A stretch of DNA of 64,000 nt, from assembly GCA_016618385.1 (NCBI GenBank), contig JABFOP010000159.1, positions 438,555 through 502,554 of the forward strand, read 5' to 3'. Source of the DNA: Nymphon striatum. Lineage: Eukaryota. The notes below the pieces were generated by a model. It worked only from the letters and a program-made list of their open reading frames with translations. It did not search any database and was not told the DNA's origin. The position numbers were made by a program, and so were the translations under genes. Numbering within the stretch: the first letter of the stretch is position 1; the number at the start of each line of letters is the position of its first letter. This document shows positions 2,045-63,700 of the stretch, piece after piece.

Positions 2045-2145
2045 ATATACAGACAAACAAAATATATATAATTCTTGTAAAATATTTATAAAATATAATT
2101 ATTTTCAAGATGCAAAAGGTATAATAATCATCGAAAGTAACCAAC

Positions 2146-5397: not shown

Positions 5398-5958
5398 ATT
5401 ATAATGGGGTACCTTGTTAAATGATGAGTGTACAGATGGCGCTGCGAGACAGCCAAGTTAAGCCTCTGATAATTTAACACTGTTTAATGCTGGCGTTTTT
5501 GAGTTTATGGGTGTTTTTATCAATTTCACATCATGCCAACTGGATGTTGCGTTCCCATATGTAAGAACAGGCCTGGCCATTCATTTCCTCTTTCAAACCC
5601 TGCACGAGTTCAATCCTGGACGCTGGCAATTAATTAGTTAAGAGAGAGAAGTGGCAACCTACCAATTTATCAGGTCTCTCGTGATGTAATGTGTGAGGAA
5701 TCGGGTCTCTCGTGATGCGATGTGTGATGAATCAGGTCTCTCGTGATGTGATGTATCAGGTCTCTCGTGATGTGATCTTTAAATCATTTAAACTCTTTCC
5801 TTCGTATTTGTTCTTAGGCATTTGGAAAACGATTCATAAAAATCAAACCAAACAACAAACACAGTTGAAGGGTTGAAGATGACCGGGATTTTGCAACTTT
5901 ACCTTACCTATAAAATAGCGCCACCTGGATTTTTAGTTCCAAAGTACCCCATTATAAT
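5398..5958 (+). mobile_element. MITE family C copy 1 (TIR ATTATAATGGGGTACYTTG; internal 22-bp tandem repeats)
   Basis: Termini 'attataatggggtaccttg' and 'caaagtaccccattataat' are inverted. Internal 'caggtctctcgtgatgtgatgt' is tandemly repeated at 5668-5770. Homologous copies occur at 45247-45758 (-) and 54506-55013 (+). Confidence 0.6.
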
Positions 5959-33136: not shown

Positions 33137-34612
33137 CAGGGGCGGATCTAGGAATTTTGAAAGGGGGGTGGCTAGGATAGGAATTTTCCTTCACCTATCG
33201 GCGTGCGTTTTTGAGAAACAGATCATATTTTGGTTTCTAAATTTTACTCAAAATTAAAGATAAACCATTTCGATTTTGTAGCTAGATTACAATAAAAAAC
33301 ATAATAATAATATTTAAAAAATAACACACAAAAATATACCATTGCTATAAGTATAATTCATTACTTCAAGTATACTGTTGCGTCTAAATCCTTAAGTTCA
33401 AAATTAATGGTAGTCTAGTAGTCACAAAAAGCATGATGTTGCAGTTTGACAAAAGTAGGCCTACTACAACGAGAAAAGACTTTGTCCCTGCTGTCCATGG
33501 ATGTAATGTAATGAAGCGGTTGACAATTTCCTCAGTGGAAACAAGGATATTACCATGCATGGCAATCACACAAAGGTCTGATAATCTATCTGTGGACATA
33601 AATGACCGAAGCCATGAGTGAATACGCCGCACACAAGAAAAGGACCTTTCGGCTTCACAGCTTCCAAGTGGCAATACTGCAAGAATGCTCAGCAACTCCC
33701 TGATATTTGGGAAAAATGTAGTGTCTGCATGATGCTGAATCAAATATGTAACTCATGAAGATGAAGAAACCTTTTTGAGGTTGTTGCTCAAATGCTGCCA
33801 TCTAAGAAGTTCATTCATACTAGTAGTAATAAAATATATGTATTTTATTGGTATAAACATATCAGGTTTTCTCTATGAGCAGGGCGACATCTAGTTCAGC
33901 TGCCGGCCGCCGCGAAATTTTTTCTCCAAAACGAAAATTAGGTCGTCTGGAGCAAACCTCACGTGATTGGATGCCGTGAGGTTTGCTCCAGACGACTTAA
34001 TTTTGATGAAATCGTATGGGAAAAAAAATTTCGCGGCCGGCAGCTGAACTAGAAGTCGCAATTATCATAGAGAAATCCTGATAGGCACTAAAATCCACTT
34101 TCCCAAGCGAAATTGTGGTCAATTTTGAAGATTTTATTTGCAAAATGACGACTGTTTCCCCCTCTATCGGAAATTGAATGAACAATTACTGTTCACTCGT
34201 CCAAATCGAGCCAAAACTGGGATTTCCGGAGACGCGCGAAAATCGTCGCTCAATTTGGTATCAGAAAAGGAAAAAACACACCAACTTCAAAATCGTTTTC
34301 CCAAACGAAGAAAAGAGGAAAGTTAATGAAATGTTTTTCTTCAGAAAGAGGAAAGCGCAGTTGTTCCGAAAATGAATGAACAATATGTGTGAAGTAACGG
34401 ACAGTTTCTCAGTTTACACTTGAAAATTTCCGTAATAGAGTTTCCCATTGATCTTTTGGGATGCTGAATCAGCCGAAATGAACGTTCGTTTCATCGATGC
34501 TGCCGTATGTTCCCATAAAATCTGATATGAAAAATACTATAAAAAAAATATATTTTTGGGTTGCAAGGGGGGGTGGCTAGCCACCGAATCCACCCCCCTA
34601 GATCCGCCCCTG
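33137..34612. mobile_element. Non-autonomous hAT element (TIR CAGGGGCGGATCTAGG) retaining only a hAT dimerisation-domain remnant
   Basis: Termini 'caggggcggatctaggaattttgaaaggggggtggctag' and 'ctagccaccgaatccacccccctagatccgcccctg' are inverted. The internal minus ORF 33384-33743, '...ILAVLPLGSCEAERSFSCVRRIHSWLRSFMSTDRLSDLCVIAMH', is a hAT C-terminal domain. Confidence 0.65.
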
Positions 34613-38998: not shown

Positions 38999-40326
38999 AG
39001 GCATGTAGTGACTTGTATTGCTTTTATTATTATACAAAATAGTGTGACGTCACTGCTTATGCTACCCTCCCAAATAACCAACCTATACATGTATGTTCTT
39101 AATAAACTTAAGAGCAGTCGTCGTCTAGCTTCTCACTTCTATTAAGAATATATAGAAGATATCAAATTGGAACGAATTACATATCCTTTATATCACATAA
39201 TATCTTTAAAAGATTTAAAATAATTAAAAAACAACTTATGGATTTAATTTCCATTTAAACATTTTTATATGTGACCAAACGACTCAATTTGTAGCATTGG
39301 TGTATAGTATAGATTACAATAATCCGCATAAAAATAGTCTCATTAATTAAGAGATATTTAGCAGTTCTGCAAGAAAATATGTTAATATGAAATATATTTT
39401 GAAATTGGTAATATCAATAACAATTATGCCTGAAACATATAATATTTAACAAATAATTGAACAAACAATTTATAAAATTCATAGTTAAAAGCTTGACCAT
39501 TCATTCATTCATTCATTCATTCGTGAGTGTAAAATTCTTTGTCATTTCCCTCGCTTTCCTATTGGCTTAGAACCCGAACATATTGTCGTCTGCTTTAAGC
39601 ATTTTCAAAACAGATCAAAAAATCAAGGTGAATTAAATACTTCTTTTATTATAATAAATATTATAAATAATATGAATGTTTATATTAGCCAGTAAAACGT
39701 GGCATATAAATAAGTGTGTGTCGGTGTATAAGAAATTCAATTAAAATGTAAACGCCAACCAAGTAATCAATTAATAAACAAAGTATTTTTAGTGCATAGA
39801 AGCATTCAAATCTAGCACATAGCATAGATCGTAGCCCATAGCATAGGCCATAACCGTTGTAATTCTTTCGTTTTAACTCATTCAGATTTTCGGTTTAATA
39901 TTCATCCAAAATGTTATAACAAAATGAATTCCCATTTAATATGAGATTTATAAAACTAGCCAACATTATATTTCAGCATAATTACATGCATAAATACGTA
40001 CGCCCATATTATGCCAATACATAATAACAAAATAACAAAATGGCTGTTCTTTTACTGTGCGCGGAAGAATATTTTATTCCTTTTCTTCATCAGCATTCTG
40101 TCTAGAGAGAGAGAGAAAAGAATTTATATTACACTCTTCCATAGGATTAACCTTGTTTTTTTTTCCATTTTATTTTTATTACACACGTTCACTATTATTA
40201 AACCGTAAACACGCCCATATTATGTGATATACATGTATAAAGTATGTTATTTGGGAGGGTAGCATCAGCAATGACGTCACAATATTTAATATAATAATAA
40301 TAACAATACAAGTCACTGCAGGCATT
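38999..40326. mobile_element. 1.3-kb element with about 95-bp TIRs containing TGACGTCA palindromes, internal (CATT)n
   Basis: 'gcatgtagtgacttgtattgcttttattattatacaaaatagtgtgacgtcactgcttatgctaccctcccaaataac' is the reverse complement of 40231-40326. (cattcatt)n lies at 39503-39530. The right TIR is absent from the duplicated copy at about 50300, where (AAT)n occurs instead. Confidence 0.45.
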
Positions 40327-41256
40327 CACCTCAATTTACCGAATAGGTTCATTAATTAGAACTGATTTATATAAGGTAGGTTGAGATTGAAAGATGCCGA
40401 TGATGCCATTTACAGGATGATATGGAGACAAATAATAAACTGCTCTATTCCCTCAAATGAAGGAGGAAATACAAATGGTATTTACAATGCTTTGATAAGA
40501 ATTCAACATGAATCAACAAGAAAAAAAAGAAGAAATATCTATAGCTTCCCAAAACCCCGTTTTAAAATTTATATTTTTAGTTCATATAAAAAATAATAAA
40601 AACTATTTTTACCTGCTAATCCCACGTGAGACATCTCTCTCAATTTAGTGGCCAAAGTTGGGATCCATTGACTTTTATCTATGGTTTTACTCCAGTGTTC
40701 AATAAATGTCCTCAAAAACAATGAAGGTATTTGATATTGTCCCCATATATCTTTTCATCTTGTTTCTCTTTTTGGCTATTTCTGTAAACTCTTGTATATG
40801 TGACTCATTCATATTCAGCTTTTTTGGCAATTCATTCGATATTTGCTTAACATAGAAATTCTTTCCTATTGTTCTGATGATATCCTGAAGAGTGAATTCT
40901 GAAAATTTAATAACATATAAACAAGTTTATGTTTGTATTTTTAAACGATTTACTTATTCTTAAACAAATTGGATTTTATCTTATAATTAAATTGGTTGAT
41001 GTTTATGCATTGGGTCCACCAATACCTTTTAACACGAATTTTGAGTTGCAATCAACAAGATTGATGAAAAGACGTAAATATGAGATGGCAATCGGTCATT
41101 TTTCAGAGTTCAATATGATGAGACAAAATCAAAGAGTAGTTAATATTGTAATTATTAGCCAAAAGATAATTATAAGAAAATGAATTTAATGATATAAAAT
41201 GTGAATATTATTATGTTATATTATAGATTATATATTACATATATTATATTTATTAT

Positions 41257-44200
41257 TTAACTGACATTATAATTATTAATAGAAAAAAATAGTGAAAGTG
41301 CTTTACCTCCTTCTGGTTTCAGACATTCAATAATCTTACTGACGGAGTAAAGAGATATTTTATTTCCACATTTTGTGCATACAATTTCCATATGATCTTT
41401 CCAAGCTATGTAAAATGCATCATGTTTACATTTGTAACAAATGAAGTAACAATCTTGTCTCAAACCGGGAACAGTTTCGATTGATTCAGAAATCATCTGG
41501 TATATTTCAAAAAGAACGTTCCTAAGTTCTTTTTTGTTCCCTTTTTTTAAGAAGAAAACTTCCATGCTGACACACATTGTTCCATAATCACATTCGCTCA
41601 TTGTTATCATTGCTTTCATACAGTTGAGATGCATAATGATTCCTGCTCGCCATGTAATGGTCAATTGACAGTCATTACAGCTTATAAGACCATAAAGTCT
41701 AACGATGATTTTAGACATAATTTCTGGGCATGAAGGTATATTTCTAAAACGAATTTCATATGTGAAATAACCCTGTTCTACAGATTCTTTAAATACTTTA
41801 AATTTGAGGTCATTTTTTAAATCTTTCTTTTGATAACATGGGAAAACATATTGTCGTCTTTCACACAAAATACTTGTTTCGTCCTTGAATTTTAATCTAT
41901 AACAACATTCTATCTTTTCCAAGAAGCCCAAAAGATGCTTTGTTTCCATTTCATTTTGGAGGTAATTTTGGATAAGCACTTCTAGTATAAGTTCAGATAA
42001 AACTCCTTCCTTAAGTAAATCCAGCATTTTATGTAGTGTTTCCGGATCTATATTCAGTTTATTTGCCTTTTCGTTTAGTGTTTCTAAAAGACCTTTAGTC
42101 AATGAAAATAATTTAAAGAAGGTTTTTTCTTTTGAGAACAAAGCTTCCAAATCATGGTGGAAAAGACTTCTAAGGTATGATATAAGAACTGCAGGACGAT
42201 GAAATATGACTTCTTCATGTTCTCTGGGTCGATGACGAATAATTTTTCCAATTTCTTCCAAGTATGTTAAAGTGACTTCCACATCGCTTAAATTCACTAT
42301 CTTTGCATAATCGCATGCCATTTCTTTTAGAAATATAAAATGAACAACTATTTTCTTTCATAACAATTTCTTCAAATCTATTCCATGAAACTGGTGTTCT
42401 TCTTAGAATTTTCTGCTCATCACTCATATAAAATTTTTGAACTATATCTTTGACTTTTTTAACGCTGATATGCATGGTATTCAAGCAATTAATTGGTAGA
42501 ACGTCTATAATTACTGGCATTAACATTTTCGGATGGTCCTACACATCTCTTTATTTCTATATACTCATTCCATCTAATTTTTAACCAATTAATTCTTATT
42601 TCAAGTAATGTTTATATTCAATCTTGTCAACATGCGATGCCAGTATTATAACGTGTGCATTTGAAACGTAAGAAGTCAACATATCACACCACCTACCAAC
42701 CTGAGTATGAAAAGACTGTTTTGAATAAATGGATATGTCCACAACTAGTATGTAGATAGAATTTTTTGAAAAGAAGAGGCAATGTGTTGATTCGTAGATA
42801 TCCTGTCCAGCTAGATCGTAGAATTTCATATTCATTTGGATCTCCGACAAATACACTTCATAATATCCGATCCACTCGTGTTCTTTCGGGTGATCTCGTG
42901 AAATGGCCGAGCATGATAGTTATGCATGAAACTTGTCTTGCCTGACAGGCTTTTCGCCCAGCATGACGATTCTAGCTTCAGGTTCTTTGTAGATTATTTC
43001 ATATGAATCATGTAAGTATTTTTTAATACCATGAAGTCCCAAGTTTAAAATACTCTCTTGTGGATAGATAAAAGGATTACCTTCATACAAAAAAGTATGC
43101 ACGCTATCTGGAACCGCTTCAAAGCAAAATGTTTTCAATTCTATTCTTCGAAATGTCCAATGATAGTTAACGTTTCTGTGATAACAACTGATTCAATGTT
43201 GTCGATCTGAAGTATAGCGTTCTGCTGCATTGATAAGAATTTCAACAATTTCAATACCAAATATTTTATGTGATACACTGTTTCATTCTATTATTGGACA
43301 CATCAATGTTTTCCTAAAAGGATTAAATTATAGATACTATCTGGAATTTTTTCTATTTTATTTTGGCTTAGATTTATTTGTTCGAGGTTTTTCAGAGAAT
43401 CAAATAAAGCCTCTGATACATTAGTGATCCCAGTTTTACTCATATCCAAAACTTTGAGATTTGGCAAGTCCACATTATATTGTTCTAAATTTGGGAGATA
43501 ACAACACGACAAATTTAATTCCTGTTAAACTTTTCATCCGAAAAATATACTCAGGAACATAATAATTACTTCCTTTTAGAGAAAATTTTTTCAGTCTGGT
43601 TAAATTAGTTGGAGGAGGAACAGCAATGATTAAAAGATGATTAGAATAGCCGTCAACAATCTTATCCTGCAGAGACAGGTTTTCGACAATTTCCATTAAT
43701 TTGGTACAATCAGCCAATTTTAACTTATTTCCAGACAAATTAACGTACTTTAAGCTATCAGGAAATATTATACTTGAAATTGAGTCAATGATCATTGTGA
43801 TCTAGCACATAAATTAATTAAGTTTTTTAATTCAGATATTTCATCTGGAATAATTTTGATTGCATTTCTTGATATATATAAATTTTGAAGCTTTTCCATG
43901 TATTTTATATCGGAAGGAAGCTTTTCAATCATATTTTTTGATAGATCTAAGTGAAAAATATTCGTTAACTTGAACAGATCATTAGGAATTTGCTCCAATC
44001 TATTATCATATGCAATAAGCTCCTGCATATCTTTCATATTTAATAAAGTTTCAGGTAGATGTTCTAGATAGCAACATGAAATATTTAAGTGCGTGATTCT
44101 AAATGAACTAGGTGAGTTAAAAACGTTGGCTTTGACTTAAAAGACTATGATAAATGGTATCAGAATTAGTATCGAACAATCCGTAACTTTGGAAATTAGC

Positions 44201-44700
44201 TTTGAAATTTCCCGAATATATTAAATTATTTGAAGCATCTAATTTCTTTAAATTTGGCATTTCGAGAAACTTATCGATAAGTAATACAAGTTCACACCCT
44301 GCCATGTTCAGCTCCTCAACTTGTTGGAAACTTAAAACAATTGAGGTCACATTAATATCTTCTGTGTACGCTTTGAAACAGAGATATATTCTTTTAGTTA
44401 GGAACTCAAATGATGATAAATATGGTTTAAATGTTGGATGATCGCTTTTACAAAATTCGACAAAGTCACTTGCTTCGTACAGTGAGGAAATGTTTTTCCA
44501 AATCTCTTTACAACATTCTGATGCATACGCCTCTGAGATATTTAACTTTTCTTCATCGATTGTGAATATCTTTCCAATTTTATGTTCATAGAAATTACAT
44601 TTATTATTTGAGATCTCTTGTTCAAATTTTTTCACTTCTTTTACTGAATGTTTTGCTGAACAAATACGTCCATATTGACATCTTAAGAGTATTTTATGGT
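41257..44700 (-). pseudogene. ROCO-family gene copy A (LRR / Roc GTPase / COR; MFHAS1-like architecture), disrupted
   Basis: COR-like 354-aa ORF 41257-42321. Roc switch-II 'KFYDLAGQDIYESTH' and G4 'IILASHVDKI' in 42596-42856. The P-loop region is degenerate ('RIVMLGEKPVRQDKFHA*'). LRR segments ('LDLSKNMIEKLPSDI', 'LNLSQNKIEKIPDSI') lie in several frames at 43303-44037. The N-terminus 44117-44635 is homologous to copy B. Confidence 0.6.
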
Positions 44701-45246
44701 ACTAAATAACTTTAGAAGATTTTAATTGATGATAATGTTGTTGCCTAAATTACTATCACATATCACAAAGAAGATATGCAAACTTCCCACACGTAGATAA
44801 AAAGCACAGTATTTGAAAGTGTGTGAAGGTTCACTATTTCATTCTAGCAGATAGAAATTCAAGACTCAGAAGTAAGCCCTTGTCATTTGAATGTAGAAGC
44901 ATACTGCTGTCAATCGAAATTAATAAATTATTGAAAACGATAATGGAATTCAATGGACACATTTGATACTTACTTTGTATCAGCTGATAAATCTTGAAAT
45001 AATCACTAAATCAAAGTATATGTGAACTTTTATATAGAAAACGAATACGGAATTATATTCCAACACAAGAGATTGGTATACACATTGGAAATAATGTTAT
45101 CAGATAGGGTGAAGAAATATTAGAAAGCTAAGTGTCTCAACAATTCTTATTGCAAATAATGAACCATGTTGACATAGGTTGTGTATTTTAACATACAATG
45201 AAATAAACACACAAATGCTGGTATGTATGCATATTTGAAAACACAG

Positions 45247-45758
45247 ATAATGGGGTACTTTGGAACTAAAAATCCAGATGGCGCAATGTAGCTGTTCAGG
45301 TCATTTTGAAAAATCCAGGAACTTCAAGTCTTCAACTGTGTTTGTTGTGTTGTTCGATTTTACGCAGGTTATAAGCATTTTTTTCAAAATCAAAATCAAT
45401 TTCTTCAAAATGCCAAAGAACAAATACGAACGAAAGAGTTTAAATGATTTAAAGATCACATGTTTCCGAGAGACCTTATAAATTGATAGGTTGCCACTTC
45501 TCTCTCTTAATTAATTAATTGCCACCTTCCACGATTGAAATCGTGCATGGGTTGACCACGGAAATAAATGGACAGACCTGTTCTTGCACATAGGCACGCG
45601 ACATTCGGTTGGCATGATGTGAAATTGACAAAAACACCCATAAACTCAGTAACGCTAGCACAACACAGTGTTAAATTATCAGAGGCTGACCTGATCTGCG
45701 TCGCAGCGCCATCTGTACAATCATCATTTAACAAGGTTGGATGGTAAACATAAAATAT
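45247..45758 (-). mobile_element. MITE family C copy 2 (abuts the 5' flank of ROCO copy A)
   Basis: Reverse complement of the 5398-5958 element. The terminal 'ataatggggtactttggaactaaaaatccagatggcgc' lies at 45247-45285. Confidence 0.55.
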
Positions 45759-45818
45759 TATTTAAACATGGCGCTTATTTCCATGTCATATTAACATTAT
45801 TATCTACTCTATTAAATA

Positions 45819-48162
45819 CAGGGGCGGATACAGGGGGGGGGCGGATTGGGTGGATGTCCACCCCCCTCTTTCGAGGTGCCAACAATAAAAAATACACACA
45901 TTTTAAAGAAATGAAAAGAATAAATCTGATTGCATGTCGTCTCTCTTTCATAAAATATGTATATGTTAAATTATTCAACTCATAACTCATCGATTCATAT
46001 TGAATTCTGACTGTTTGCACATTTAGACAGACATCTTGAGCCGTTTCTCATGCAGCGGCGCTGGCCAACAGGGACAAATGTACGCATTTAATGTAGAATT
46101 TGCTTAAATACCCAAGGAAAATTAAAACAAGTTCATCACCATTTTATGTCTTGTTGCAGAAACCAACCTTGATCTTAAAAAAACATCTCATATCTGGACC
46201 AGTAAATGCATACTACACAAGCAAAAATGTAAAAAATGAAATTATACACAAGTAATGGCTGACTTTTCTGAATATTTCGAATATTTCCGTATTGAAGCTA
46301 ATCCATTGAAGCTAATCCCCACTTTGCATTGATTGCCGACGAAACAACAGCACAGGGTCGTAAGATTTTGTCAGTGTGTCTTCGAATGACTTTTGTGACC
46401 TGCCTAGAACAATTGGATCAGTTATAGCCACCACAATACTGGACAGTTTACGAAGACATAAGATCGACGTAGCAAATTGTTGTGGCCAGGCGTACGACAC
46501 AACTGCGTCTATGAGCTCCGACTAGAAGGGAGTTCAAGGAACAATTGCAAAGTATGCACCAGACACAGAGTATCACGGTTGCGCCCTTCAGTCACTAAAT
46601 CTGGTCATCTTCCATGCCTGTAAGATCAAATAAATTCAGAATATGATGGATAGTTGCCGTGAACTGTACATTTTCGTTGAAAATTCTCCAAAAAGACAGA
46701 GAGCAAAAAACGAAAGTTGAAGAATCTATGCAAAACAATCGTGTAAAACAAGACGACACTCCACATTTAAAACCATATTTGATTTGTACGGGTAGCCTAT
46801 ATCGTCATCAAGCTAAATGAAATCTGTGATCCAACCAATAATGCTCATTTTTACCCAAATGATGAAGAATGTAGCTGGAATCCAAAAACTAAGTCACATT
46901 GGCAAATAGACTGCAACATACCATGACAAACTTTGACCATATTTTCAACTTGGTCTGTGCGAAGGAAATGGTGGAACCAATTTGACCACCTGTTTATTTC
47001 CTTCATGGCCGCCATGTAGAATTATATTTTGGCTATACAAAATTGAAGACACCACGAGCTTGACAATACCTGTTCTAGACATAATATGTTCAGAACTAAA
47101 ATGCCAATTCAGCAAGAATGTGCGAGTACGCCATGAGCTGTGTGCTCTCATTCCTACAGTAAGTGTCACTAAGTCTTCTGAAAGCATGACTGAACTTGCC
47201 AACGTACTGCAAGAGAAATGGGATCACGTACTTCCAGTCTCATCAGCCTTTGGACACGAAATGTTTTGCTGGAACAGTTACTGTAAGCGACAGGCCTTAG
47301 GCGAAACCTCTGTAACGTGACTTTTGGCCAAACATGCTGATAGCATATTATTTTCGAACATCCGAGAGTTACTCAAGATTCTTGCTGTATTGCCAATTGA
47401 TAGCACGGAAGCTGAGCGATCGCTCTCCTGTGTAAAGAGAATACGCACGTGGCATAGGAGTACCATAACAACAGAAAGACTTTCAAACGTTTCTCTTATT
47501 GCGATGCACAGCCACTTTGTCTGCATTACTAGAGGACAGGTATGTGAAAGATATCCGAAAGATATATGGCAATGCATCAGAGGAGTGTATAATTCTTGAT
47601 AACATCTTACGCCAATTGCGTTCGATTTCTTCTCTGTTGGTCACTATTTCGACATCTGCGTTTTTTAATCTATTACCTATACAGTTAATCTTTTCTTGGC
47701 CGTCTTATATCCTTTCTCTTCTATAAGTGTGTGGTGAAGATGCACACAGAGTGTAAAGATTTGACCCAGACAGTGAAGAGTAGCAAGTGGAACTGGGCTA
47801 GACACGTGACCTGTAGAACAGACGATAGATGGACCACTAAAACCACAATTTAGATAACAGATAGGGGAGGAAGAAAACGTGGGAACCGAAGAGAAGGTGG
47901 ATGGATGATATAGCTAAATTTGACAGTTATTGCGTAGAGAGAGCTGCCGATGAAGAGAACTGGAGATCGAGAAAGGAGGGAGGCCTTTGCTCAGCAGTGG
48001 GTCTAGTTTGGGGCTGATGATGATTTATTTCCAGGTGTCAATAATACCAGGATTCGATAACTACCATTTCTGGACGCTCATGTAGAATAAATACCTTGAA
48101 GTGTTGAAGGAGTTTTGAATAATAATATCCACCTCCCTTTTTAAAATCCTGGATCCGCCCCT
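45819..48162. mobile_element. Degenerate autonomous-type hAT element (TIR CAGGGGCGGATMCAGG), same family as 33137-34612
   Basis: 'caggggcggatacaggggggggg' at the left end and 'cctggatccgcccctg' at the right end. Internal + strand frames give 'FALIADETTAQGRKILSVCLR', 'GQAYDTTASMSS', 'YHGCALHSLNLV' and a C-terminal 'ILAVLPIDSTEAERSLSCVKRIRTWHRSTITTERLSNVSLIAMH' with stops. An RTE tail fragment is nested at 47727-48025. Confidence 0.6.
46260..47600 (+). pseudogene. hAT transposase pseudogene (internal to the 45819-48162 element)
   Basis: RNase-H-like motifs and the hAT dimerisation domain are recognisable, but interrupted by stops and frameshifts. Confidence 0.5.
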
Positions 48163-50325
48163 GAAATACTATAGAAATCCACAATTTTAATCAATTAATC
48201 GTTAGAAAAAGAAATAAACTCACGACTTAGCTCAATCATTATCACCATTCACTAATAGTATGGCAAAGAATATGGCGGATTTTAAAATCAAATTGTTCGT
48301 AACCAAATTGATCATGGGGAAAGTACTTAGCAACAGTCACGAACCCGTCACATCCCTACCAATTTTACGTCACAGTCATGTTAAAACACAAAGTTAAAAT
48401 TAATAATTAAAGAAATTCTTACCTGGATTCGAATATGAAACATTTCGATGAAGTAAACGCGCGATAGCCTAATCACTGGGCCACCGAGAATATTAATAAT
48501 AGTTAGGTCTAAAATTTCAATTCCGTGACCATTCTCTGGCTAAGATGGTTTGACAATTGATTTGACTTTTTTTTTTGACATGCCGACAGCGACCATCCAC
48601 CAGTTCCCAGCCATGTTCGATTGGTGAGAGATGGTGTTTCAAGGAGGGATTCCGCACAGAATATGCCAGGTAGTTTGCACGAAGGCAGTATTGGCGTAGG
48701 CTATCTGCATCTGGAGAGAGACGTAACTTGTTCTTCATGCTCTTCCACTTTTTGGCGCGGGCCTTATCCATGGTCTTACTCTTGTGGTCGCCGTCGATGG
48801 TATGATATCATGTTGTGTAAACTCGAAGAGATCCTCTACCACCTCTTGATCAAGATCAACGTTGTCCTTCCGCCCTTAGTTAGATGACTTCAGCCAAGAG
48901 GGCAGAATTCCACGAGTCGGGTTAAAAGAAATTTACTACGATGGAAATGCCTTTTGGGGGTTTTTGCTAGAGAGTAATGATGGGGAGGCTGCTGACAACA
49001 GGTTGGCAACATCTTGGCCCGATCGGCTCATAATGAGCCTTAAGCCCATTTTGAAAGTCGGTCTATTGGGTTCAGATTAGGGGAGTGCTTTGCACTGGCT
49101 TAGATGGTCCTAGTCGTTAAATCTGACTTGTTTCTGGGTAACTTGAACTTACTCGAGTGATGTACAGTTAACCCCTTCTCTGTATTAAGGTGCGGACATA
49201 TCGTAGCGGATCGTGCGGATCATATCGTAGCGTTCTCACATTCTGGGGATATCTTAATTCTGGGGTGACGCATAATTCTCCTAAGTACTTTAGTACCTAA
49301 GTACCTAAGTACTTAACTACTTTACATATCCTTTATATCACATAATATCTTTAAAACATTTAAAATAATTAAAAAACAACTTATGGATTCAATTTCCATT
49401 TAAACATTTTTATATGTGACCAAATGACTCAATTCGTAGCATTGGTGTATGGTATAGATTACAATAATCCACGTAAAAATAATCCCATTAATTAAGAGAT
49501 ATTTAACAGTTCTACAAGAAAATATGTTAATATGACATATATTTTGAAATTGGCAATATCAATAACAGTTATGCCTGAAACATATAATATTTAATAAATA
49601 ATTTAACAAACAATTTATCAAATTTCTACATTCATAGTAAAAAGCTTGATCATTCATTCATTCGTATGTGTAACATTTTTTGTCATTTCCCTCGCTTCCC
49701 GATTGGCTTAGAACCATTGATGCATGTTTTCGTCTGCTCTAAGCATTTTCAAAACTGATCAACAAATCAAGGTGAATTAAATACTTCTTTTATTATAATA
49801 AATATTATAAATAATATGAATGTTAGTAAGCCAGTAAAACGTGGCATATAAATAAGTGTGTGTCGGTGTTTAAAAAATTCAATTAATAAACAAAGTACTT
49901 TTAGTGCATAGTATTAGTAGCTTTCAAACCTAGCACATAGCATAGGCGAAAACCGTGATAATTCTTTCGTTTTAACTCATTCAGATTTTCGGTTTAACAT
50001 TCATTCAAAATGTTATAACAAAATGAATTCCCATTTGATATGAGATTTATAAAACTAGCCAACATTGTATTTCAGCATGCTAGTAATAAATTCGTACTCC
50101 TAATGCCAATGCATAGTATTTCGCTAGCATTATCAAGAAACAAAATGGTTGTTCTTTAACTGTGCGCGGAGGAATATTTGATTAATTTTCTTACTTTAAT
50201 CATCAGCTTTCTCTCCAAAGAGAGAGAGAAAGGAATTTATATTACACACATTCACTATTATTAAACCGTAAAAACGCCCATATTATGTGATATAAGGTAA
50301 TACATAATAATAATGATAAAAAGGA

Positions 50326-50333
50326 TAATGATG

Positions 50334-50382
<49 letters not shown>

Positions 50383-50390
50383 AAATAATA
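50326..50390. repeat. (AAT)n microsatellite
   Basis: 'aataataataataat...' is read directly. It generates the spurious poly-Leu ORF 50242-50454. Confidence 0.8.
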
Positions 50391-50503
50391 ATATAAATAA
50401 TAATAATAATAGTGAATATAATAATTGGTAAATGTATCTTATTGTACTTTCCAACTATTTAAATGAATTTCTAAGTATTAATAGAAACAAATAATTGAAT
50501 AAT

Positions 50504-53500
50504 TCAAAGTGCCTTACCTCCTTCTGGTTTCAGACTTTCAATAATCTTACTGACAGAGTAAAGGGATATTTTATTTCCACATTTTGTGCATACAATTTCC
50601 ATGTGATCTTTCCAAGCTATGTAAAATGCATCATGTTTACATTTGTAACAAATGAAGTAACAGTCTTGTCTCAAACCGGGAACAGTTTCGATTGATTCAG
50701 AAATCATCTGGTATATTTCAAAAAGAACGTTCCTAAGTTCTTTTTTGTTCCCTTTTTTTAAGAAGAAAACTTCCATGCTGACACACATTGTTCCATAATC
50801 ACATTCGCTCATTGTTATCATTGCTTTCATACAGTTGAGATGCATAATGATTCCTGCTCGCCATGTAATGGTCAATTGACAGTCATTACAGCTTATAAGA
50901 CCATAAAGTCTAACGATGATTTTAGACATAATTTCTGGGCATGAAGGTATATTTCTAAAACGAATTTCATATTTGAAATAACCCTGTTCTACAGATTCTT
51001 TAAATACTTTAAATTTAGGGTCATTTTTTAAATCTTTCTTTTGATAACATGGGAAAACATATTGTCGTCCTTTCACACAAAATACTTGTTTCGTCCTTGA
51101 ATTTTAATCTATAACAACATTCTATCTTTTCCAAGAAGCCCAAAAGATGCTTTGTTTCCATTTCATTTTGGAGGTAATTTTGGATAAGCACTTCTAGTAT
51201 AAGTTCAGATAAAACTCCTTCCTTAAGTAAATCCAGCATTTTATGTAGTGTTTCCGGATCTATATTCAGTTTATTTGCCTTTTCGTTTAGTGTTTCTAAA
51301 AGACCTTTAGTCAATGAAAATATTTAAAGAAGCTTTTTTCTTTTGAGAACAAAGCTTCCAAATCATGGTGGAAAAGACTTCTAAGGTATGATATAAGAAC
51401 TGCAGGACGATGAAATATGACTTCTTCATGTTCTCTGGGTCGATGACGAATAATTTTTCCAATTTCTTCCAAGTATGTTAAAGTGACTTCCACATCGCTT
51501 AAATTCACTATCTTTGCATAATTGCATGCCATTTCTTTTGAAATATAAAATGAACAACTATTTTCTTTCATAACAATTTCTTCAAATCTATTCCATGAAA
51601 CTGGTGTTCTTCTTAGAATTTTCTGCTCATCAGTCATATAAAATTTTTGAACTATAGTCTTTGAACTTTTTAACGCTGATATGCTTGGTATTCAAGCAAT
51701 TAATTGGTAGAACGTCTATAATTACTGGCATTAACATTTTGGATGGTCCTACACATTTCTTTATTTCTATATACTCATTCCATCTAAATTTTAACCAATT
51801 AGTTCTTATTTCAAGTATGTTTACATCAATCTTGTCAACATGCGATGCCAGTATTATAACGTGTGCATTTGAAACGTAAGAAGTCAACATATCACACCAC
51901 CTACCAACCTGAGTATGAAAAGACTGTTTTGAAAAAATGGATATGTCCACAACTAGTATGTAGATAGAATTTTGTGAAAAGAAGAGGCAATGTGTTGATT
52001 CGTAGATATCCTGTCCAGCTAGATCGTAGAAGTTTCATTTTCATTTGGATCTCCGACAAATACACTTCATAATATTCAACCTACTCGTGTTCTTTCGGGT
52101 GATCTCGTGACATGGCCGAGCATGATGTTATGCATGAAAGTTGTCTTGCCTGACAGGCTTTCGCCCAGCATGACAATTCTAGCTTCAGGTTCTTTGTAGA
52201 TTATTTCATATGAATCATGTAAGTATTTTTTAATACCATGAAGTCCCAAGTTTAAAATACTCTCTTGTGGATAGATAAAAGGATTCCCTTTATACAAAAA
52301 ATCATGGACGCTATCTGGAACAGCTTCAAAGCAAAAATGTTTCATTTTATTCTTTGAAATGTCTAAAGATATTAACGATTTCTGTGATAACAACTGATTC
52401 AATGTTGTCGATCTGAAGTATAGCGTTCTGCTGCAGTGATAAGAATTTCAACAATTTCAAACCAAATATTTTATGTGATACACTGTTTATTCTATTATTG
52501 GAAACATCAATGATTTCCAGAAGATTTAAATTATAGATACACTCTGGAATTTTATCAATTTGATTTTGGCTTAGATTTATTTGTTCGAGGTTTTTCAGAG
52601 AATTAAATAAGGCCTCTGATAGATTAGTGAGCCCAGTTTTACTCATATCCAAAACTTTGAGATTTGGCAAGTCCACATTACATTGTTCTAAATTTGGGAG
52701 ATAACAACACGACAAATTTAATTCTGTTAAATTTTTCATTCGAAAAATATACCCAGGAACATTATAATAATTACTTCCTCTTAGAGAAAATGTTTTCAGT
52801 CTGGTTAAATTAGTTGGAGGAGGACCAGCAATGTTTAACATATGATTAGCATCGACGTTAAATATCATATCCTGCATCGACAGGTTCTCAACAATTTCCA
52901 TTAAATTGGTACAACCTGCCAATTTTAACTTATTTCCAGACAAATTAACGTACTTTAAGCTATCAGGAAATATAATACTTGAAATTGAGTCAATGATATT
53001 GTGATCTGCACATAAATTAGTTAAGTTTTTTAATTCAGATATTTCATCTGGAATAATTTTGATTGAATTTCTTGATATGTACAAATTTTGAAGCTTTTCC
53101 ATGTATTTTATATTGGAAGGAAGCTTTTCGATCATATTTTTTGATAGATCTAAGTGAAACATTTTCGTTAACTTGAACAGATCATTAGGAATTTGCTCCA
53201 ATCTATTATCATATGCAATAAGCTCTTGCATATCTTTCATATTTAATAAAGTTTCAGGTAGATGTTCTAGATTGCAACATGAAATGTTTAAGTGCGTGAT
53301 TCTAAATAAGCTAGGCGAGGTAAAATGATGGCTTTGCATGAGAAGGGTTTGAACAGGTGAATTATAACGTAATCCGATATATGTAAAAGATTGGTCGAAT
53401 GCTATATCAGAAAATATTAAATTATTTGAAACATCTAATTTCTTTAAATTTGGCATTCTAAGAAACTTATCAATAAGTAAAACAAGTCTACACCCTGCCA

Positions 53501-53874
53501 TGTTCAGCTCCTCAACTTGTTGGAAACTTAAGACAATCGATGCATCATCATTTACTGCATTTCCTTTGAAACAGATATGTATACTTTTAGTCAGGAACTC
53601 AAATGATGATAAATACGGTTTGAATGTTGGATGATCGCTATTACAAAATTCGACAAAGTCACTTGCTTCGTATAGTGAAGAAATGTTTTTCCAAATCTCT
53701 TTACAACGTTCTGATGCATACGCCTCTGAGATATTTAACTTTTCTTCAGTCGATTGTGAATATCTTTCCAATTTTATGTTCATAGAAATTACATTTGTTA
53801 TTTGAGACCTCTTGTTCAAATTTTTTCACTTCTTTTACGAATGTTTTGCTGAAAAAATACGTCCATATTGACAT
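50504..53874 (-). pseudogene. ROCO-family gene copy B (LRR / Roc GTPase / COR), more complete but frameshifted
   Basis: LRR ORF 52347-53819 has about 15 LxxLxLxxNxIxxLP repeats. Roc P-loop 'RIVMLGESLSGKTTF' is present. Switch-II 'FYDLAGQDIYES' is present only in a shifted frame. 'VGRWCDMLTSYVSNAHVIILASHVDKI' follows. COR-like ORFs lie at 50504-51637. Probable ATG is at 53872-53874 ('MSIWTYFFSKTFVKEVKKFEQE'), followed by a 1-bp insertion that creates a TGA. Confidence 0.6.
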
Positions 53875-54505
53875 CTTAAGAGTATTTTATGGTACTAAAT
53901 AACATTAGAAGATTTTAATTGATGATAATGTTGGTGTCAAATTATATCACATATCACAAAAAAGATAGCGAAACTTCCACACGTAGATAAAAAGCACAGT
54001 ATTTGAAATGTGTGAATGTCACTATTTCATTCTAGCCGATAGAAATCAAGACTCAAAAGAAGCCCTTGTCATTTGAAGGAGAAGCATACTGCTGTCAATC
54101 GAAATTCATAAATTATTGAAAACGATAATGGAATTCAATGGACACATTTGATACTTACTTTGTATCAGCTGATAAACCTTGAAATAATCACTAAATCAAA
54201 GTATATGTGAACTTTTATATAGAAAACGAATACGGAATTATAGTCCAACAAAAGAGATTTTCATACACATTAGATGTAATGTTAACAGATAGGGTGAAGA
54301 CATATTAAAAATATAAGTGTCTCGACAATAGTTGTTGTAAGTATACTATCTGGATCATGTTGACATATGTTGTGTATTTTAACATAAAATGAAATAAACA
54401 CACATACACTCGTACGTATGCATATTTAAATATACAGATAATTGAAGGATAGGAATAAAACATTATCTAATTCACGGCTGTTTGACGCTCCATTGAAATG
54501 TCCTC

Positions 54506-55013
54506 ATTAATGGGATACCTTGTTAAATGATGAGTGTACAGATGGCGCTAGCGACGCAAGGAGGTTCAGCCTCTGATAATTTAACGCTGTGTTGTGCTAG
54601 CGATACTGAGTTTATGTGTGTTTTTGTCCATTACACATCATGCCAACCGAATGTCGCGTGCATATGTGCAAGAACAGGTCTGTCCATTTATTTCCATGGT
54701 CAACCCATGCACGATTTCAATCGTGGAAGGTGGCAATTAATTAATTAAGAAAGAGAAGTGGCTACCTACCAATTTATCAGGTCTCTCGGACACAAGTGAA
54801 AATATTTGTGAGGTTTTATTATAATTATAATGTGATTATAATTAATAATAATATAATTATAATTAGGTTAGGTTTTATTATAAATTATAACATAACCTAA
54901 TCTAATTAAGATTTGTCCGAGAGACTTAAAAGAACCTTACTTAAAAATTTAAAAATTAAAAGAACCTACTTGCAGCCACAACGCCACCAGGATTTTTAGT
55001 TCCAAAGTACCCT
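54506..55013 (+). mobile_element. MITE family C copy 3 (66 bp from the 5' flank of ROCO copy B), with an AT-rich palindromic internal segment
   Basis: Ends 'attaatgggataccttgttaaatgatgag' and 'gatttttagttccaaagtaccc'. Internal palindrome at 54785-54925. Confidence 0.55.
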
Positions 55014-55126
55014 ACTTATTCATGTATTTTACTATTTTTTTCTTATATTTTTTACCAATTTATATTTTAGTTTATTATTAACTTAATTAATTCTAAAACT
55101 ACGTAGGTCCTCAAATAAATAGAGGA

Positions 55127-55744: not shown

Positions 55745-56190
55745 TTAGGTGAAATTTCCTTTTTATTTTAGAATTTAATTATTTGGATTTCTACACTGTT
55801 TGCCTTTACTACAACTACAAAATGTCACACATGTTATGTTCCTTTCTCTGCAAGTGCACGTTTTGATACTCATACATGATGTTGGGCATTTGCATGGAGA
55901 GGGCAGGTCATCGGGCCTACACGATACTGGCAGTAACTGGTGCTATGCCAACATCCGTTGCTTCATATCCATACTGGAGTGGATCTGGTTTGGTGACTGC
56001 TGGAGTTGGAGCTTGCTACCACATTTTACACTGCAGATATGATCGCTTTATGTGTTCTCGTAGCGTTGATGCTATGAGCAACACACAAGCTGGTTGAAGT
56101 CAAGCTCTTGTTTGGAGTTGTGGTACTGCTCCCATCGATATTCATCGAAAGTTGAACAGTCGGTCTTCTTTAATCCAGACACAAGGAACT
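55745..56190. repeat. Left arm of a large inverted duplication (partner at 56760-57195)
   Basis: 55801-56190 is the reverse complement of 56760-57150 at about 93% identity. The flanks 55745-55800 and 57151-57195 are also inverted matches. Confidence 0.7.
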
Positions 56191-57150
56191 TTTCAGCATT
56201 GTTTGTTATCTCTGGTGACAGTTCTTCTACACCAAATACTTCCAGTAGTGAGATATCCATGGATGTTCTCAGGCCAGACAGCTTTGGACCCACCTTGCTG
56301 GTACTGTCGCAACCACTGAGAGTATGAATGGCTGGGAGACACGACACCAAACTGTTGTCAAGTTGATCAACCAACAGGTAGACTGGAACAGTTTTCTTTG
56401 TTTTCCGGTTACCAAGCTTCACGTACAGCTTTTGTAGTTGCCAGGATTTGTTGAAGTAGAAGATGAGGTTAACAAAGACATCTGTGTCAGGTGAGTCAAC
56501 CAAGACTGATTGGACCCCGTGTTTCACAGCACCATCGTTAATATGGAACATGATTCTGTCGTCGGCTTCTTCTTGGTTGCTTGCGAGCTCTGCGATCTGT
56601 GTTTCAGTGCCAGCCTAACAGTTTCCTGCATTCTCTCCCCATATACTCCTCCAAAGAAGATCTCTTTGTTCGACTCGACATTCTGCAGCATCCATTTGAA
56701 GACATACTCCTGCAACCGAACTTTGTTCAACGTTGAGCTCCAGAACATATCAAGATCGACAGGGTTCCTTGTGTCTGGATTAAAGAAGACCGACTGTTCA
56801 ACTTTCGATGAATATCGATGGAAGCAGTACCACAACTCCAAACAAGAGCTGGACTTCAACCAGCTTGTGTGTTGCTCATCAACGCTACGAGAACACATAA
56901 AGCGAGCATATCTGCAGTGTAAGATGTGGTAGCAAGCCCCAACTCCTGCAGTCACCAAACCAGATCCACTCCAGTATGGATATGAAGCAACGGATATTGG
57001 CATAGTACCAGTGATACTGCCAGTATCGTGTAGGCCCGATGACCTGCCCCCTCCATGCAAATGCCCAACATCATGTATGAGTATCAAAACGTGCACTTGC
57101 AGAGAAAGGAACATAACATGTGTGACGTTTTGTGGTTTTAGTAAAGGCAA
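56072..57150 (-). pseudogene. Second member of the FEN-like/H3TH family, frameshifted, embedded in about 450-bp inverted duplication arms
   Basis: Minus-strand 'QIAELASNQEEADDRIMFHINDGAVKHGVQSVLVDSPDTDVFVNLIFYF...CLPAIHTLSGCDSTSKVGPKLSGL' parallels 'NHEEADTRIFAHIA...VIQATDTDIIFLAMYHF...ILSGCDSVSYPFKRGKK' of the 59845 ORF. There is a frame break near 56540. Confidence 0.5.
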
Positions 57151-57224
57151 AAAGTATAAAAATCCAAATAATTAAATTCTAAAATAGGAACAATATGCAA
57201 AAGGTACAACAGGTAATATGATGA

Positions 57225-57834: not shown

Positions 57835-58701
57835 AGCTACTCTAGTATATGAGTGTCTTGAAGCGCTATTCCAAAATGTTGGCGTGTTATAGCCATTCTT
57901 ATATCATGTACCAAAATGAAGGTTTTCACTTGAATTTCATTTGTCATTAGATTAAAAAGTCAATTGTGAGTTGGCTATTGATCGTAATCGAATTTTGATT
58001 GTAAGCAGGTTATAGAGCTTGAAGTAAGGAAGACAACAATGTGCGTCTTGAAATCAAGTTCCAAAATTTGGGGGAGTTATAGCCATTCTTAGATCATGTA
58101 CCAAAAATAATTTTTTCGTTTGAATCTAATTTGTCATTCGATTAAAATGTCGATTGTGAGTCGCCTATTGATCGTAATCGAATTTGGATTGAGGGCAACT
58201 TATAGAGCTTGAAGTAAAGAAGACAACTATGAGTGTCTTGAAGCGCTATTCCAAAATGTTGGCGTGTTATAGCCATTCTTATATCATGTACCAAAATGAA
58301 GGTTTTCACTTGAATTTCATTTGTCATTAGATTAAAAAAGTCAATTGCGAGTTGGCTATTGATCGTAATCGAATTTTGATTGTAAGCAGGTTATAGAGCT
58401 TGAAGTAAGGAAGACAACAATGTGCGTCTTGAAATCAAATTCTAAAATTTGGGGGAGTTATAGCCATTCTTAGATCATGTACCAAAAATAATTTTTTCGT
58501 TTGAATCTAATTTGTCATTCGATTAAAAAGTCGATTGTGAGTCGCCTATTGATTGTAATCGAATTTAAATTTGACACATGTTATAGAGTTTGAAGTAAGG
58601 AATACAACTATGTGCGTCTAAAAACGCTATTCTAAAATTTAGTGCGTTATAGCCATTCTTAGATCATGTACCAAAATGAAGGTTTTCGCTTAAATTTCAT
58701 T
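57835..58701. repeat. Satellite array (same 185-bp family as 18020-19768), truncated by an insertion
   Basis: Monomers 'ttatagccattcttagatcatgtaccaaaa...gtcgattgtgagtcgcctattgatcgtaatcgaatt'. The array stops at '...aaatttcatta' at 58701. Confidence 0.7.
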
Positions 58702-59690: not shown

Positions 59691-59916
59691 CGCAATGGAA
59701 ATAAGTCTTTGGACTTTCTTGCGTCATCTTAGTTGAACATACTGTTTACCTAATAAACTCAAATCAAATCAAAGTAGTTGATGTATCCACATTTTCACAC
59801 CCAAAATATGTTCTTTGCATCCCTCTAATGTTTTTTAACTTTCTTTGCTTTCGTCTCTACTTGAAAGTGTTAGAACTGCATTTGAGAGGAAAGAGAAGGG
59901 CGAATCTGCTGCACTC

Positions 59917-62488: not shown

Positions 62489-63394
62489 TTGGTGTTGATT
62501 ACAGACACAGGGAGTCTGAGATTGTGAATGTTGCCTACCACAAATTTATTGTTCCTTTGTTATATTCCAAACACGCCGTTTACTTAACAAGTCAGTTCTC
62601 GAGTTTCAATTATGTTCAGTTGCGTCATTTCTATTTTGTTGAATTGAAGAAATCGGATATTTTCTAACCGACTTCTCGGAATTCATTGAAGTGTTTAAAC
62701 TTTTCCCCCTCCCGTTCTCACCCTCTCACCCTCTCAGCAATTTATATTCTTTTTTTTAGCTTGACTGGCACAAAACGAATCAATTTTAAAATCTATTTTA
62801 ATTAATAAATTCATTTTCAAAGCTACCTGCCGGTTGTGCAATAAACAGAATATAAAATTCGTGCCCGTTGCCACGAGATATATGGAACTCGTCAACTTAG
62901 TTTTAATTTCAGCTCGCCAAGGCTCGCCAAGGCTCGCTGAAATAAAAACAAAGTTGACTCGTTCCATATATTTCGTAAGCAACGATCACTCATTCTATAT
63001 CCTCTATTTATATATTTTTTATATTTACGAGAACCATATACCCATCACTGAGCGGAAGTTTAAAATCGAAATCGAAAGTGCAGTTAAACTGTACTTTCGA
63101 TTTCGATTTTAAACTTCCGGTTAAACTGTACTTTCGATTTCGGTTTTAAACTTCCGCTCAACTACGCACGTGCGCACAAGGAGGTGTAATGACACGAAAG
63201 GAATGGCCGTAGTTTGTAACAGATTTTTACTATTTAACGCATTTTAAGAGGTAGTTTTGTGACGTTTTTTCTTTACCATTTCATGCTTTTTACTATGTTT
63301 TTCCCGAATCATCATAAAAACTTTTCAGTCGGCGGTAAAATAACACGGTCGGTCGGGTTACCGGAAACACAACATTTTTTTTTTTTGGCCTTAG

Positions 63395-63700
63395 TAATTC
63401 GATTAAAAAGTCGACTGTGAATCGCCTATTGATCGTAATCCAATTTAAATTTGACGTATGCTATAAATCTTGAAGTAAGGAAGACAACTATATGTGTGTC
63501 TTGAAATCAAATTCCAAAATTTGGGTGAGTTATAGCCATTCTTAGATCATGTACCAAAAATAATTTTTTCGTTTGAATCTAATTTGTCATTCGATTAAAA
63601 AGTCGATTGTGAGTCGCCTACTGATCGTAATCGTATTTGGATTGAGGGCAAGTTATAGAGCTTGAAGTAAGGAAGACAACATGTGTGTCTTTGTAGCTCC
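63395..63700. repeat. Satellite array resuming after the insertion (about 1.7 monomers)
   Basis: 'taattcgattaaaaagtcgactgtgaatcgcctattgatcgtaatccaattt...' continues the monomer interrupted at 58701. Confidence 0.7.

Follow-up and report, generated by a model that had tools for sequence, protein, structure and literature searches.

Two ROCO genes in a tandem duplication

A stretch of 64,000 nucleotides from the sea spider Nymphon striatum (contig JABFOP010000159.1 of assembly GCA_016618385.1, positions 438,555 to 502,554 of the forward strand), referred to here as the window and numbered from its first letter, carries two copies, A and B, of a minus-strand gene that encodes leucine-rich repeats (LRRs), a Roc GTPase domain and a COR domain, the domains of the ROCO family. 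Proteins of this family are LRR-guided GTPase switches, in which a partner is bound through the LRRs, Roc alternates between its GTP and GDP states, and COR dimerizes. By analogy with the family, the proteins of this window would act as switches of the same kind. An original prediction, made from the letters of the window, described the copies as a decaying pseudogene pair or, alternatively, as a gene whose assembly contains homopolymer insertion/deletion (indel) errors. All lesions, frames and constraint statistics given below were read from the assembled consensus sequence. The window is AT-rich (~30–40% GC), contains no Ns or gaps, and is rich throughout in satellites and transposon relics.

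The two copies lie in direct repeats on the same strand, and the tandem duplication is genuine. The original prediction of a tandem ~10-kb duplication was right about the direct tandem repeat, while the figure of ~10 kb describes the spacing of the repeats (9.2–10.1 kb) and not the duplicated DNA, which amounts to 6.1 kb in copy A and 5.1 kb in copy B (Table 1). The gene bodies (A, 41295–45251; B, 50506–54442) are co-linear with 93.7% identity over 3978 aligned columns, and the 3′ flank of A (39177–40231) aligns with B 49322–50294 at 80–95% identity. The co-linearity claimed for 39178–45250 and 49318–54440 is therefore found in the flanks and the gene body, but it is interrupted by a 1.06-kb block present in A only (40232–41294). 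The spacer between the copies contains one copy of a dispersed element, termed element X (45252–45737), a hAT-like transposase tail (47324–47599) and further dispersed repeats (47726–48024 and 48885–49289). No co-linear homology links it to the sequence preceding A or to that following B; inverted dispersed repeats are all that it shares with them.

Element X is ~0.5 kb long and occurs three times in the window (5411–5950, 45252–45737 and 54508–55030). One copy lies at, or no more than ~65 bp from, the 5′ end of each duplicated segment; these two copies are 93% identical and in opposite orientation, and their position and orientation suggest that the boundary of the duplication originated by inversion or in a repeat-mediated manner. 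At the other end of copy A, an inverted repeat with ~90-bp arms (39001–39094 and 40229–40323, 88% complementary) brackets the duplicated 3′ flank, and its right arm starts exactly where the homology between A and B ends.

The assembly is a draft built from PacBio reads of 40 pooled individuals with mate-pair scaffolding, and pooling harmed its quality according to its authors (PMC12220506). Pooling, together with the identity of up to 100% between parts of the copies, might suggest that the assembler laid divergent haplotypes of one locus side by side. We regard such a false duplication as the least probable of the explanations considered here, and as far as haplotypes are concerned it is ruled out by the lack of co-linear homology between the 4-kb spacer and the outer flanks. 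The synonymous divergence (Ks) of 0.17 in the LRRs is also far beyond the allelic range, no assembly gap interrupts the window, and the copies differ structurally, both in the A-only block and in the opposite orientation of element X.

Table 1. Coordinates of the duplicated segments, gene models, homogenized tracts and frame breaks in the window.
Feature	Position	Strand	Description	Basis
Duplicated segment, copy A	39177–45251		3′ flank, A-only block, gene body, 5′ flank	blastn and repeat search
Duplicated segment, copy B	49322–54442			blastn and repeat search against copy A
Copy A exon 1	41307–44681	-	ATG 44681 to donor GAG/GTAAAG; N-terminal region, LRRs, Roc, COR	MAFFT alignment, frame maps
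Copy A intron, phase 1	40899–41306	-	GT at 41306; acceptor TTTTCAG, AG at 40899	
Copy A exon 2, C-terminal tail	40569–40898	-	stop codon 40569–40571	tblastn, frame map
Copy B exon 1	50518–53874	-	ATG 53874 to donor GAG/GTAAGG	
Homogenized tract, copy A	41295–43074	-	end of LRRs, Roc, COR; 98–100% identical to B	
Homogenized tract, copy B	50506–52281	-	counterpart of A 41295–43074	
Shared break 1, copy A	43188–43203	-	GACAAC[A]TTGAATCAG, inside last LRRs	
Shared break 1, copy B	52394–52409	-	identical sequence to copy A	
Shared break 2, copy A	42863–42875	-	GTGGAT[C]GGATAT, between P-loop and switch II	
Shared break 2, copy B	52072–52084	-	GTAGGT[T]GAATAT; TAG there off the coding path	
Copy A private insertions 1–8	44645, 44123, 43804, 43793, 43522, 43315, 43284, 43255		exon 1	
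Copy A private insertions 9–15	43130, 42954, 42918, 42618, 42608, 42530, 42329		exon 1	
Copy B private lesions	53749 (+C), 52032 (+C), 51657 (+C), 51070 (+G), 51322/51323 (T lost)			
B site opposite A 40232–41294	50295–50505		211 bp including (TAA)n at 50298–50425	
Spacer, unduplicated, 4.07 kb	45252–49321		repeat debris	
Element X copy by 5′ end of segment B	54508–55030			

Domains and gene structure

On a 1114-residue A/B composite, Pfam recognizes LRR_8 (2e-27) and Roc (1e-13; 52 bits, cut-off 27), while COR-B (E = 0.0086; 16 bits, cut-off 27) is below the cut-off on the composite alone. The COR region is, however, co-linear with COR-A/COR-B of the protein r2_g828 of the sea spider Pycnogonum litorale, whose COR-B scores 39 bits. 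The best sequence match of Roc-COR in the PDB is the Methanosarcina barkeri Roco RocCOR structure 4wnr (Roc domain, 9e-7). A full-length family profile was swamped by LRR proteins when compared with the PDB and was redone as a COR-only profile of 10 sequences, which matches ROCO COR structures exclusively (4wnr, 3dpt, 3dpu, 6hlu and 8r4b; E 2e-5 to 2e-3), so that on these profile matches the assignment of the predicted proteins to the ROCO (LRR-Roc-COR) family holds. Pfam, the 4wnr match and the COR profile thus agree with the domains that the original prediction had read on the minus strand of both copies, and its three GTPase motifs are likewise found: the P-loop GESLSGKTTF at B 52143–52159 (copy A has the codons for ..SLSGKTSF..), the switch II motif DLAGQD at A 42800–42817 and B 52008–52025, and the G4 motif SHVD at A 42626–42637 and B 51834–51845. 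The LRR region contains 10 (A) and 12 (B) core motifs by regular expression. The Roc GTPase thus has its P-loop, a DxxG switch II and G4, in a domain that is frame-broken in both copies as assembled, and COR follows directly C-terminal to it. Roc and COR are always found as a tandem unit, and the kinase-less LRR-Roc-COR protein is the simplest ROCO arrangement (PMC4104024). The layout here, in which the LRRs are N-terminal, Roc-COR comes after them and a kinase is absent, is that of the MFHAS1 type; no domain other than LRR, Roc and COR-B was found by Pfam in the composite, and none in exon 2.

The gene has two exons. Exon 1 ends at a donor directly after ..KPEG, and in copy A the donor and acceptor of the intron are in phase with the open reading frames (ORFs) on both sides; GenBank models use the same exon-1 donor in copy B, where the ORF, if unspliced, continues to a TGA at 50504–50506. 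Exon 2 of A encodes a C-terminal tail homologous to the C-terminus of another N. striatum protein, KAG1650822.1 (tblastn; pairwise BLASTP E = 2e-4; frame map). It contains one more +1 frame break at ~40705–40755 and a possible alternative donor at 40613/40612. Copy B has neither most of the intron nor any of exon 2: homology to A ends ~100 bp into the intron, at (TAA)n, and no match to A exon 2 was found elsewhere in the 64-kb window. Exon 2, which had been absent from the original prediction, is therefore present in A and deleted in B. No Death domain was matched by Pfam in the exon-2 peptide, in KAG1650822.1 (P0124) or in protein P0125. When the tails were compared by hhalign with the LRR-Roc-COR-Death protein P0011 of the amphioxus Branchiostoma belcheri, they were placed, at the equivalent position of the protein, on the last helices of its Death domain with weak values (E = 0.037, 1.4% probability). 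In an AlphaFold2 model, the tail of the P. litorale protein has five helices, with a predicted local distance difference test score (pLDDT) of 54.

Relatives and related systems

An exhaustive HMMER search of 1.84 billion representatives with the 354-residue COR ORF of copy A as query (E < 1e-3) yielded ten relatives only, including KAG1650822.1, r2_g828 of P. litorale (CAM1298609.1, 1159 residues) and an "MFHAS1 homolog" of amphioxus and of a hemichordate. A word-index protein search missed KAG1650822.1, a 38%-identical paralog that HMMER alone found. The HMMER search gave no sign of a large ROCO expansion: it recovered two clusters from N. striatum and a single gene from P. litorale. By locus, the family comprises three N. 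striatum members and one P. litorale member. KAG1650822.1 is encoded on another N. striatum contig (189 kb) and is annotated as uninterrupted; its Roc and COR are 40–50% identical to those of the window copies, with the motifs kept. It is thus an intact-looking candidate, in the same assembly, for the intact paralog that the original prediction had considered. Exact look-ups with the COR ORF, a TRIM-like ORF of the window, the GenBank protein P0121 and KAG1650822.1 returned no contig, and hence no independent copy of the locus or of the DNA of the paralog. KAG1650822.1 is named "Granulin," as its gene model joins three granulin repeats to a complete LRR-Roc-COR protein. Residues ~662–786 of this protein do not resemble LRRs and might be an out-of-frame translation, which, if so, could be another sign of single-base problems in the assembly.

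The window copies are co-linear with KAG1650822.1 and r2_g828 from the N-terminal motif CKxIW..FCKxDHP, across LRRs, Roc and COR, into the tail, with identities of 38–50% to the former and 23–42% to the latter. Both relatives are annotated as uninterrupted, whereas the window copies are frame-broken and copy B has no tail exon. Outside sea spiders, the closest named relatives are the MFHAS1 homologs of Branchiostoma and Glandiceps, which share with the window copies the order of LRRs, Roc and COR-A/COR-B and the absence of a kinase. The COR motifs VFHxP, LR..F.HD, KFxxCY, FPxY, W..G and C.xC are common to MFHAS1-type ROCO proteins and the sea-spider gene. The identity to the MFHAS1 homologs is, however, only ~20–25%, and the likeness is one of architecture; moreover, an N-terminal region of ~110 residues and the tail exon are common to the sea-spider relatives only. 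MFHAS1 genes are confined to deuterostomes in the statement of Marin (2008) that is quoted in PMC4104024. Judged from their predicted domain order, these arthropod LRR-Roc-COR genes extend the MFHAS1-type architecture to a protostome. The amphioxus protein P0011 has the same core followed by a helical C-terminal module of ~100 residues, which is a Death domain; in the sea-spider tails Pfam detects none. Prokaryotic Roco RocCOR structures (Chlorobaculum tepidum 3dpu and 6hlu; M. barkeri 4wnr) are among the PDB matches of the COR profile, but the similarity is remote (E 1e-5 to 1e-3), the organisms are unrelated, and the prokaryotic proteins have no tail.

Frame breaks in the two copies

A global alignment of A and B contains 278 substitutions and ~30 single-base indels. 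All frame breaks in the coding sequence are single-base: 21 are insertions and 1 is a deletion, comprising 15 private insertions in A, 4 insertions and the deletion in B, and 2 insertions shared by the copies (Table 1). The polarity of each private indel follows from the other copy, which reads through in frame at that site. Copy A has one in-frame TAA near 43170, and its +A at 42954 shifts the P-loop codons out of frame. The claim that A had lost most of its LRRs and its P-loop is therefore incorrect, as all of them are present and co-linear with B, only shifted out of frame. For copy B, both predicted lesions were recovered: +C at 53749 creates GAC TGA after codon 42 of ATG 53874, and +C at 52032 lies directly before FYDLAGQD, shifting the frame through switch II.

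The single shared break that had been placed at the LRR/Roc junction does lie in the last LRRs of both copies, but there is a second one between P-loop and switch II. At shared break 1 (GACAAC[A]TTGAAT), deletion of one base restores the 17-residue NAI..LDIS spacing of the paralog KAG1650822.1; at shared break 2, it gives TRV(D/G)(G/E)YYEV, compared with TRVIEFYEL in the paralog. The intervals within which the frame must change are no longer than 100 bp, and for break 2 in B the interval is only a few bases long. The LRR/Roc sequence is continuous across the shared breaks, with the residue spacing of the paralog. Introns were rejected as an explanation for either of these frame switches, for no GT..AG pair of workable size or phase is present. 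Errors in homopolymer length, the alternative offered by the original prediction, were rejected as well, as the extra base matches neither neighbor in 17/28 indels. One-base corrections alone leave B with 1121 codons and no stop and A with 1135 codons and one TAA, and the corrected Roc-COR is stop-free over 520 codons in both copies.

The abundance of frame breaks in A and B alike, most of them not in homopolymers, is what would be expected if the copies were genuine pseudogenes, recently and unequally inactivated after having been functional for most of their divergence. A would have decayed first and B later, with the loss of exon 2 and five frameshifts, and ectopic gene conversion between the dead copies would have homogenized their 3′ half, carrying the two shared frameshifts from one copy to the other. 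Such a course is the main reading of the original prediction with a later time of death, and we hold it to be a serious competitor, although a somewhat less probable one than the reading proposed below. The spectrum of the breaks argues against it. Small-indel spectra in nature are usually deletion-biased, and even under equal insertion and deletion rates the binomial probability of 21 insertions against a single deletion is ~5e-6. Inside the ORF, A and B differ in length by single bases and by three in-frame indels of 3, 6 and 3 bp; no multi-base frameshifting indel was found in 2 × 3.4 kb, while the flanks have indels of 2, 4, 14 and 22 bp. As single bases make up ~88% of all gaps in other repeats, the absence of 2-, 4- and 5-bp frameshifts is only weakly informative. 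With the same aligner, the ROCO pair has 3.1 mismatches per gap, compared with 9.8 in other repeats of the window, and the near-identical 3′ tract has 10 private indels against ~27 substitutions (2.7:1), which is hard to reconcile with decay. A satellite-monomer control, with 23 substitutions, 2 deletions and 4 singleton insertions, was too small for calibration of an error spectrum.

Evidence of coding constraint

The substitutions between the copies carry the signal of a protein-coding sequence. In the LRR part (486 codons, 134 differences), the ratio of nonsynonymous divergence (Ka) to Ks is 0.49 (Fisher p = 3e-4), compared with 0.94 and 1.53 when the same columns are read in the two wrong frames. 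None of the 134 LRR substitutions is nonsense where 8.0 would be expected, and a count of zero was obtained in none of 2000 simulations (P < 5e-4). Copy A has at most one nonsense codon, compared with ~5 expected if it had been neutral since the duplication (P ~0.03), and copy B has none on its coding path; under full neutrality 8–10 would be expected where 0–1 are seen. A pseudogene would be marked by a neutral Ka/Ks of ~1, by nonsense codons and by indels of all lengths and signs, and this is not what the copies contain. The claim of a decaying pseudogene pair is right about most of the lesions and about the tandem pair, but the Ka/Ks, the lack of LRR nonsense codons, the in-frame multi-base indels and the excess of insertions contradict it, and a long neutral decay of both copies is opposed by the substitution record.

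Constraint continues past shared break 1: over the 100 codons downstream, Ka/Ks is 0.32 (p = 0.02) in the gene's own frame and >4 in the other frames, a further point against pseudogenes. It also bears on a different possibility, namely that the selected product is an LRR-only protein of ~500 residues, the LRR/Roc break being real and old and Roc-COR being untranslated and maintained by gene conversion. Such a product would fit the uninterrupted 490-residue ORF of B (52347–53819), which ends just past shared break 1, and the LRR part, where constraint is strongest and best supported. However, neither the low Ka/Ks past the break nor a corrected Roc-COR that stays free of stops would be expected of an untranslated sequence, Roc and COR keep all their motifs along with 40–50% identity to the paralog, and +C at codon 42 separates the ATG of B at 53874 from the LRR ORF. 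We therefore consider an LRR-only product quite improbable, if a little less so than a false duplication.

Homogenization of the 3′ half

Divergence is not uniform along the gene. The LRR half is ~90% identical between the copies, the tract that starts at A 43074 / B 52281 and reaches the exon-1 end is 98–100% identical, and the sequence downstream is 76–90% identical. Correspondingly, Ks drops from 0.168 in the LRRs to 0.024 in Roc-COR (p = 1e-8), and the copies match without a difference over runs of up to 309 bp. Direct repeats with such a sharp internal drop in divergence are the pattern of a tandem duplication with gene conversion, and the 1.8-kb tract has, from its sequence, the signature of homogenization either by gene conversion or in the assembly through mixing of reads. 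A hypervariable patch in the N-terminal LRRs (44071–44321 in A, 53274–53517 in B) has only 76% identity, with Ks 0.40 and Ka 0.26, between flanks of 90–96% identity; it could have arisen by diversifying change or by a separate conversion event with a different paralog as donor, or it could reflect a local misalignment.

Homogenization affects how the shared breaks are dated. Break 2 lies inside the tract, whereas break 1 is ~120 bp away from it, within 80 bp over which the copies differ at one base only. As the breaks are in or beside the tract of Ks 0.024, the fact that they are shared does not date them before the duplication, and so early an origin is argued against by the constraint downstream of break 1. 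The conclusion of the original prediction that the shared lesion is older than the duplication is thus not sustained.

Origin of the frame breaks

With a probability of about 0.5, we propose that A and B are coding-constrained young paralogs disturbed by consensus errors. They would be a genuine tandem pair derived from a two-exon ROCO gene encoding an N-terminal region, ~15 LRRs, a Roc GTPase, COR-A/COR-B with a conserved CxxC..C and a short C-terminal tail, which by analogy would couple the protein to downstream partners. After the duplication both copies would have evolved as protein-coding sequence, and later their 3′ 1.8 kb would have become homogenized, through gene conversion or because reads were mixed during assembly. 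The ~22 coding breaks, or at least most of them, would be single extra bases introduced while the consensus of a long-read draft from pooled individuals was built, and copy B would also lack exon 2, really or apparently. On the evidence of their spectrum, the breaks are probably not the result of evolutionary decay. Many random single-base insertions with almost no spurious substitutions are the error profile of noisy long reads and of a mixed-haplotype consensus. It is from this likeness that we infer an artefactual origin of the insertions, whose spectrum itself is observed. In 9 of 19 cases, compared with 5.1 expected (P = 0.04, a weak signal), the inserted base can be read as a synonymous allele beside the reference base, as expected of a consensus that writes both alleles at a polymorphic site. 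The uninterrupted annotation of KAG1650822.1 in the same assembly provides a precedent.

Several observations weigh against consensus errors, and most of them favor pseudogenes. Two breaks are at identical codons in both copies, for which independent errors are insufficient unless reads were mixed between the near-identical copies. The loss of exon 2 from B is a structural lesion and not a one-base error, and exon 2 of A is frame-broken too. Across the LRRs, whose identity between the copies is just ~90%, there are 8 insertions in A and 1 in B, an asymmetry that is hard to blame on cross-mapping and would be natural if A were a true pseudogene, and the ratio of substitutions to indels there (~11:1) matches the baseline of the window (9.8:1). 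The non-coding flanks carry indels at 2–5 times the density of the ORF, as would be the case if the ORF had been protected during a part of its history. Among single-base indels, 30% match a neighbor in the pair and 39% in other repeats, which is no difference. Other ORFs of the window are unbroken (a RING-B-box-NHL ORF of 1.3 kb and ORFs of 601 and 363 residues), so that the error rate would need to be locus-specific. The PacBio reads are termed high-fidelity (HiFi) in PMC12220506, and if they are, insertions outside homopolymers would be an unexpected type of error. A model in which the copies died after about two thirds of the time since the duplication agrees with Ka/Ks and is only slightly strained by the shortage of nonsense codons (P ~0.05–0.3), and pseudogenes with a late time of death may thus be compatible with the data. 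In addition, a chimeric "hypothetical protein" is the only model that could be built at the locus. Even so, the picture of independent decay is at best half right and may largely be an assembly artefact.

Other features of the window

An intact, TRIM-like RING-B-box-NHL ORF of 424 residues is found at 21592–22866 (+; Pfam NHL 1e-32, B-box), which indicates that the assembly is not error-ridden throughout. A 601-residue ORF at 59845–61650 (+) has a poly-Asp tail and belongs to no Pfam family. An ORF fragment at 56072–56551 (-) is possibly related to it, as judged by eye from an LSGCDS motif common to both, and sits between the arms of a 428-bp inverted duplication (55764–56189 and 56764–57186, 95% identity); together they probably represent an uncharacterized mobile element. 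hAT-like transposase relics are located at 2128–3219 (-), 33384–33743 (-) and 47324–47599 (+), the last two being 53% identical over 74 residues. Satellite arrays occupy 17235–20091, 57848–58701 and 63391–63691, with a 190/381-bp family at three places; a 181-bp array (17235–18012) and its inverted partial copy (19764–20091) bracket a 190-bp array.

Annotation and implications

The GenBank "hypothetical protein GQR58_010077" is 98–99% identical to the Roc-COR query and is a B-to-A chimera (P0121 and P0122) that covers 41257–44681 and 50504–51637. Its path starts in the COR of B, splices at the exon-1 donor of B into the N-terminus of A, skips the frameshifts of A and ends at the shifted P-loop of that copy (..GEKPVRQDKFHA). 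The locus thus exemplifies how an annotation pipeline can weld two copies into one chimeric hypothetical protein and, on the reading as young paralogs, how a pooled long-read draft can make such paralogs resemble decaying pseudogenes. These findings would not surprise a specialist, and their value is mostly practical.

For the family, the locus adds a small sea-spider group of kinase-less LRR-Roc-COR proteins and an example in which LRR divergence is combined with a homogenized GTPase half. It is unlikely, although less so than an LRR-only product, that the locus holds something more unusual, either a natural, almost purely +1 insertion spectrum in two genes that otherwise look cleanly constrained, if the extra bases are real, or functional MFHAS1-type ROCO receptors of a protostome. 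In the former case, the spectrum would point to an unusual insertion-biased mutational process, in the sea-spider genome or targeted to this locus. In the latter and milder case, the copies would encode ROCO receptors, possibly Death-tailed, whose LRRs diversify while gene conversion homogenizes their Roc-COR.

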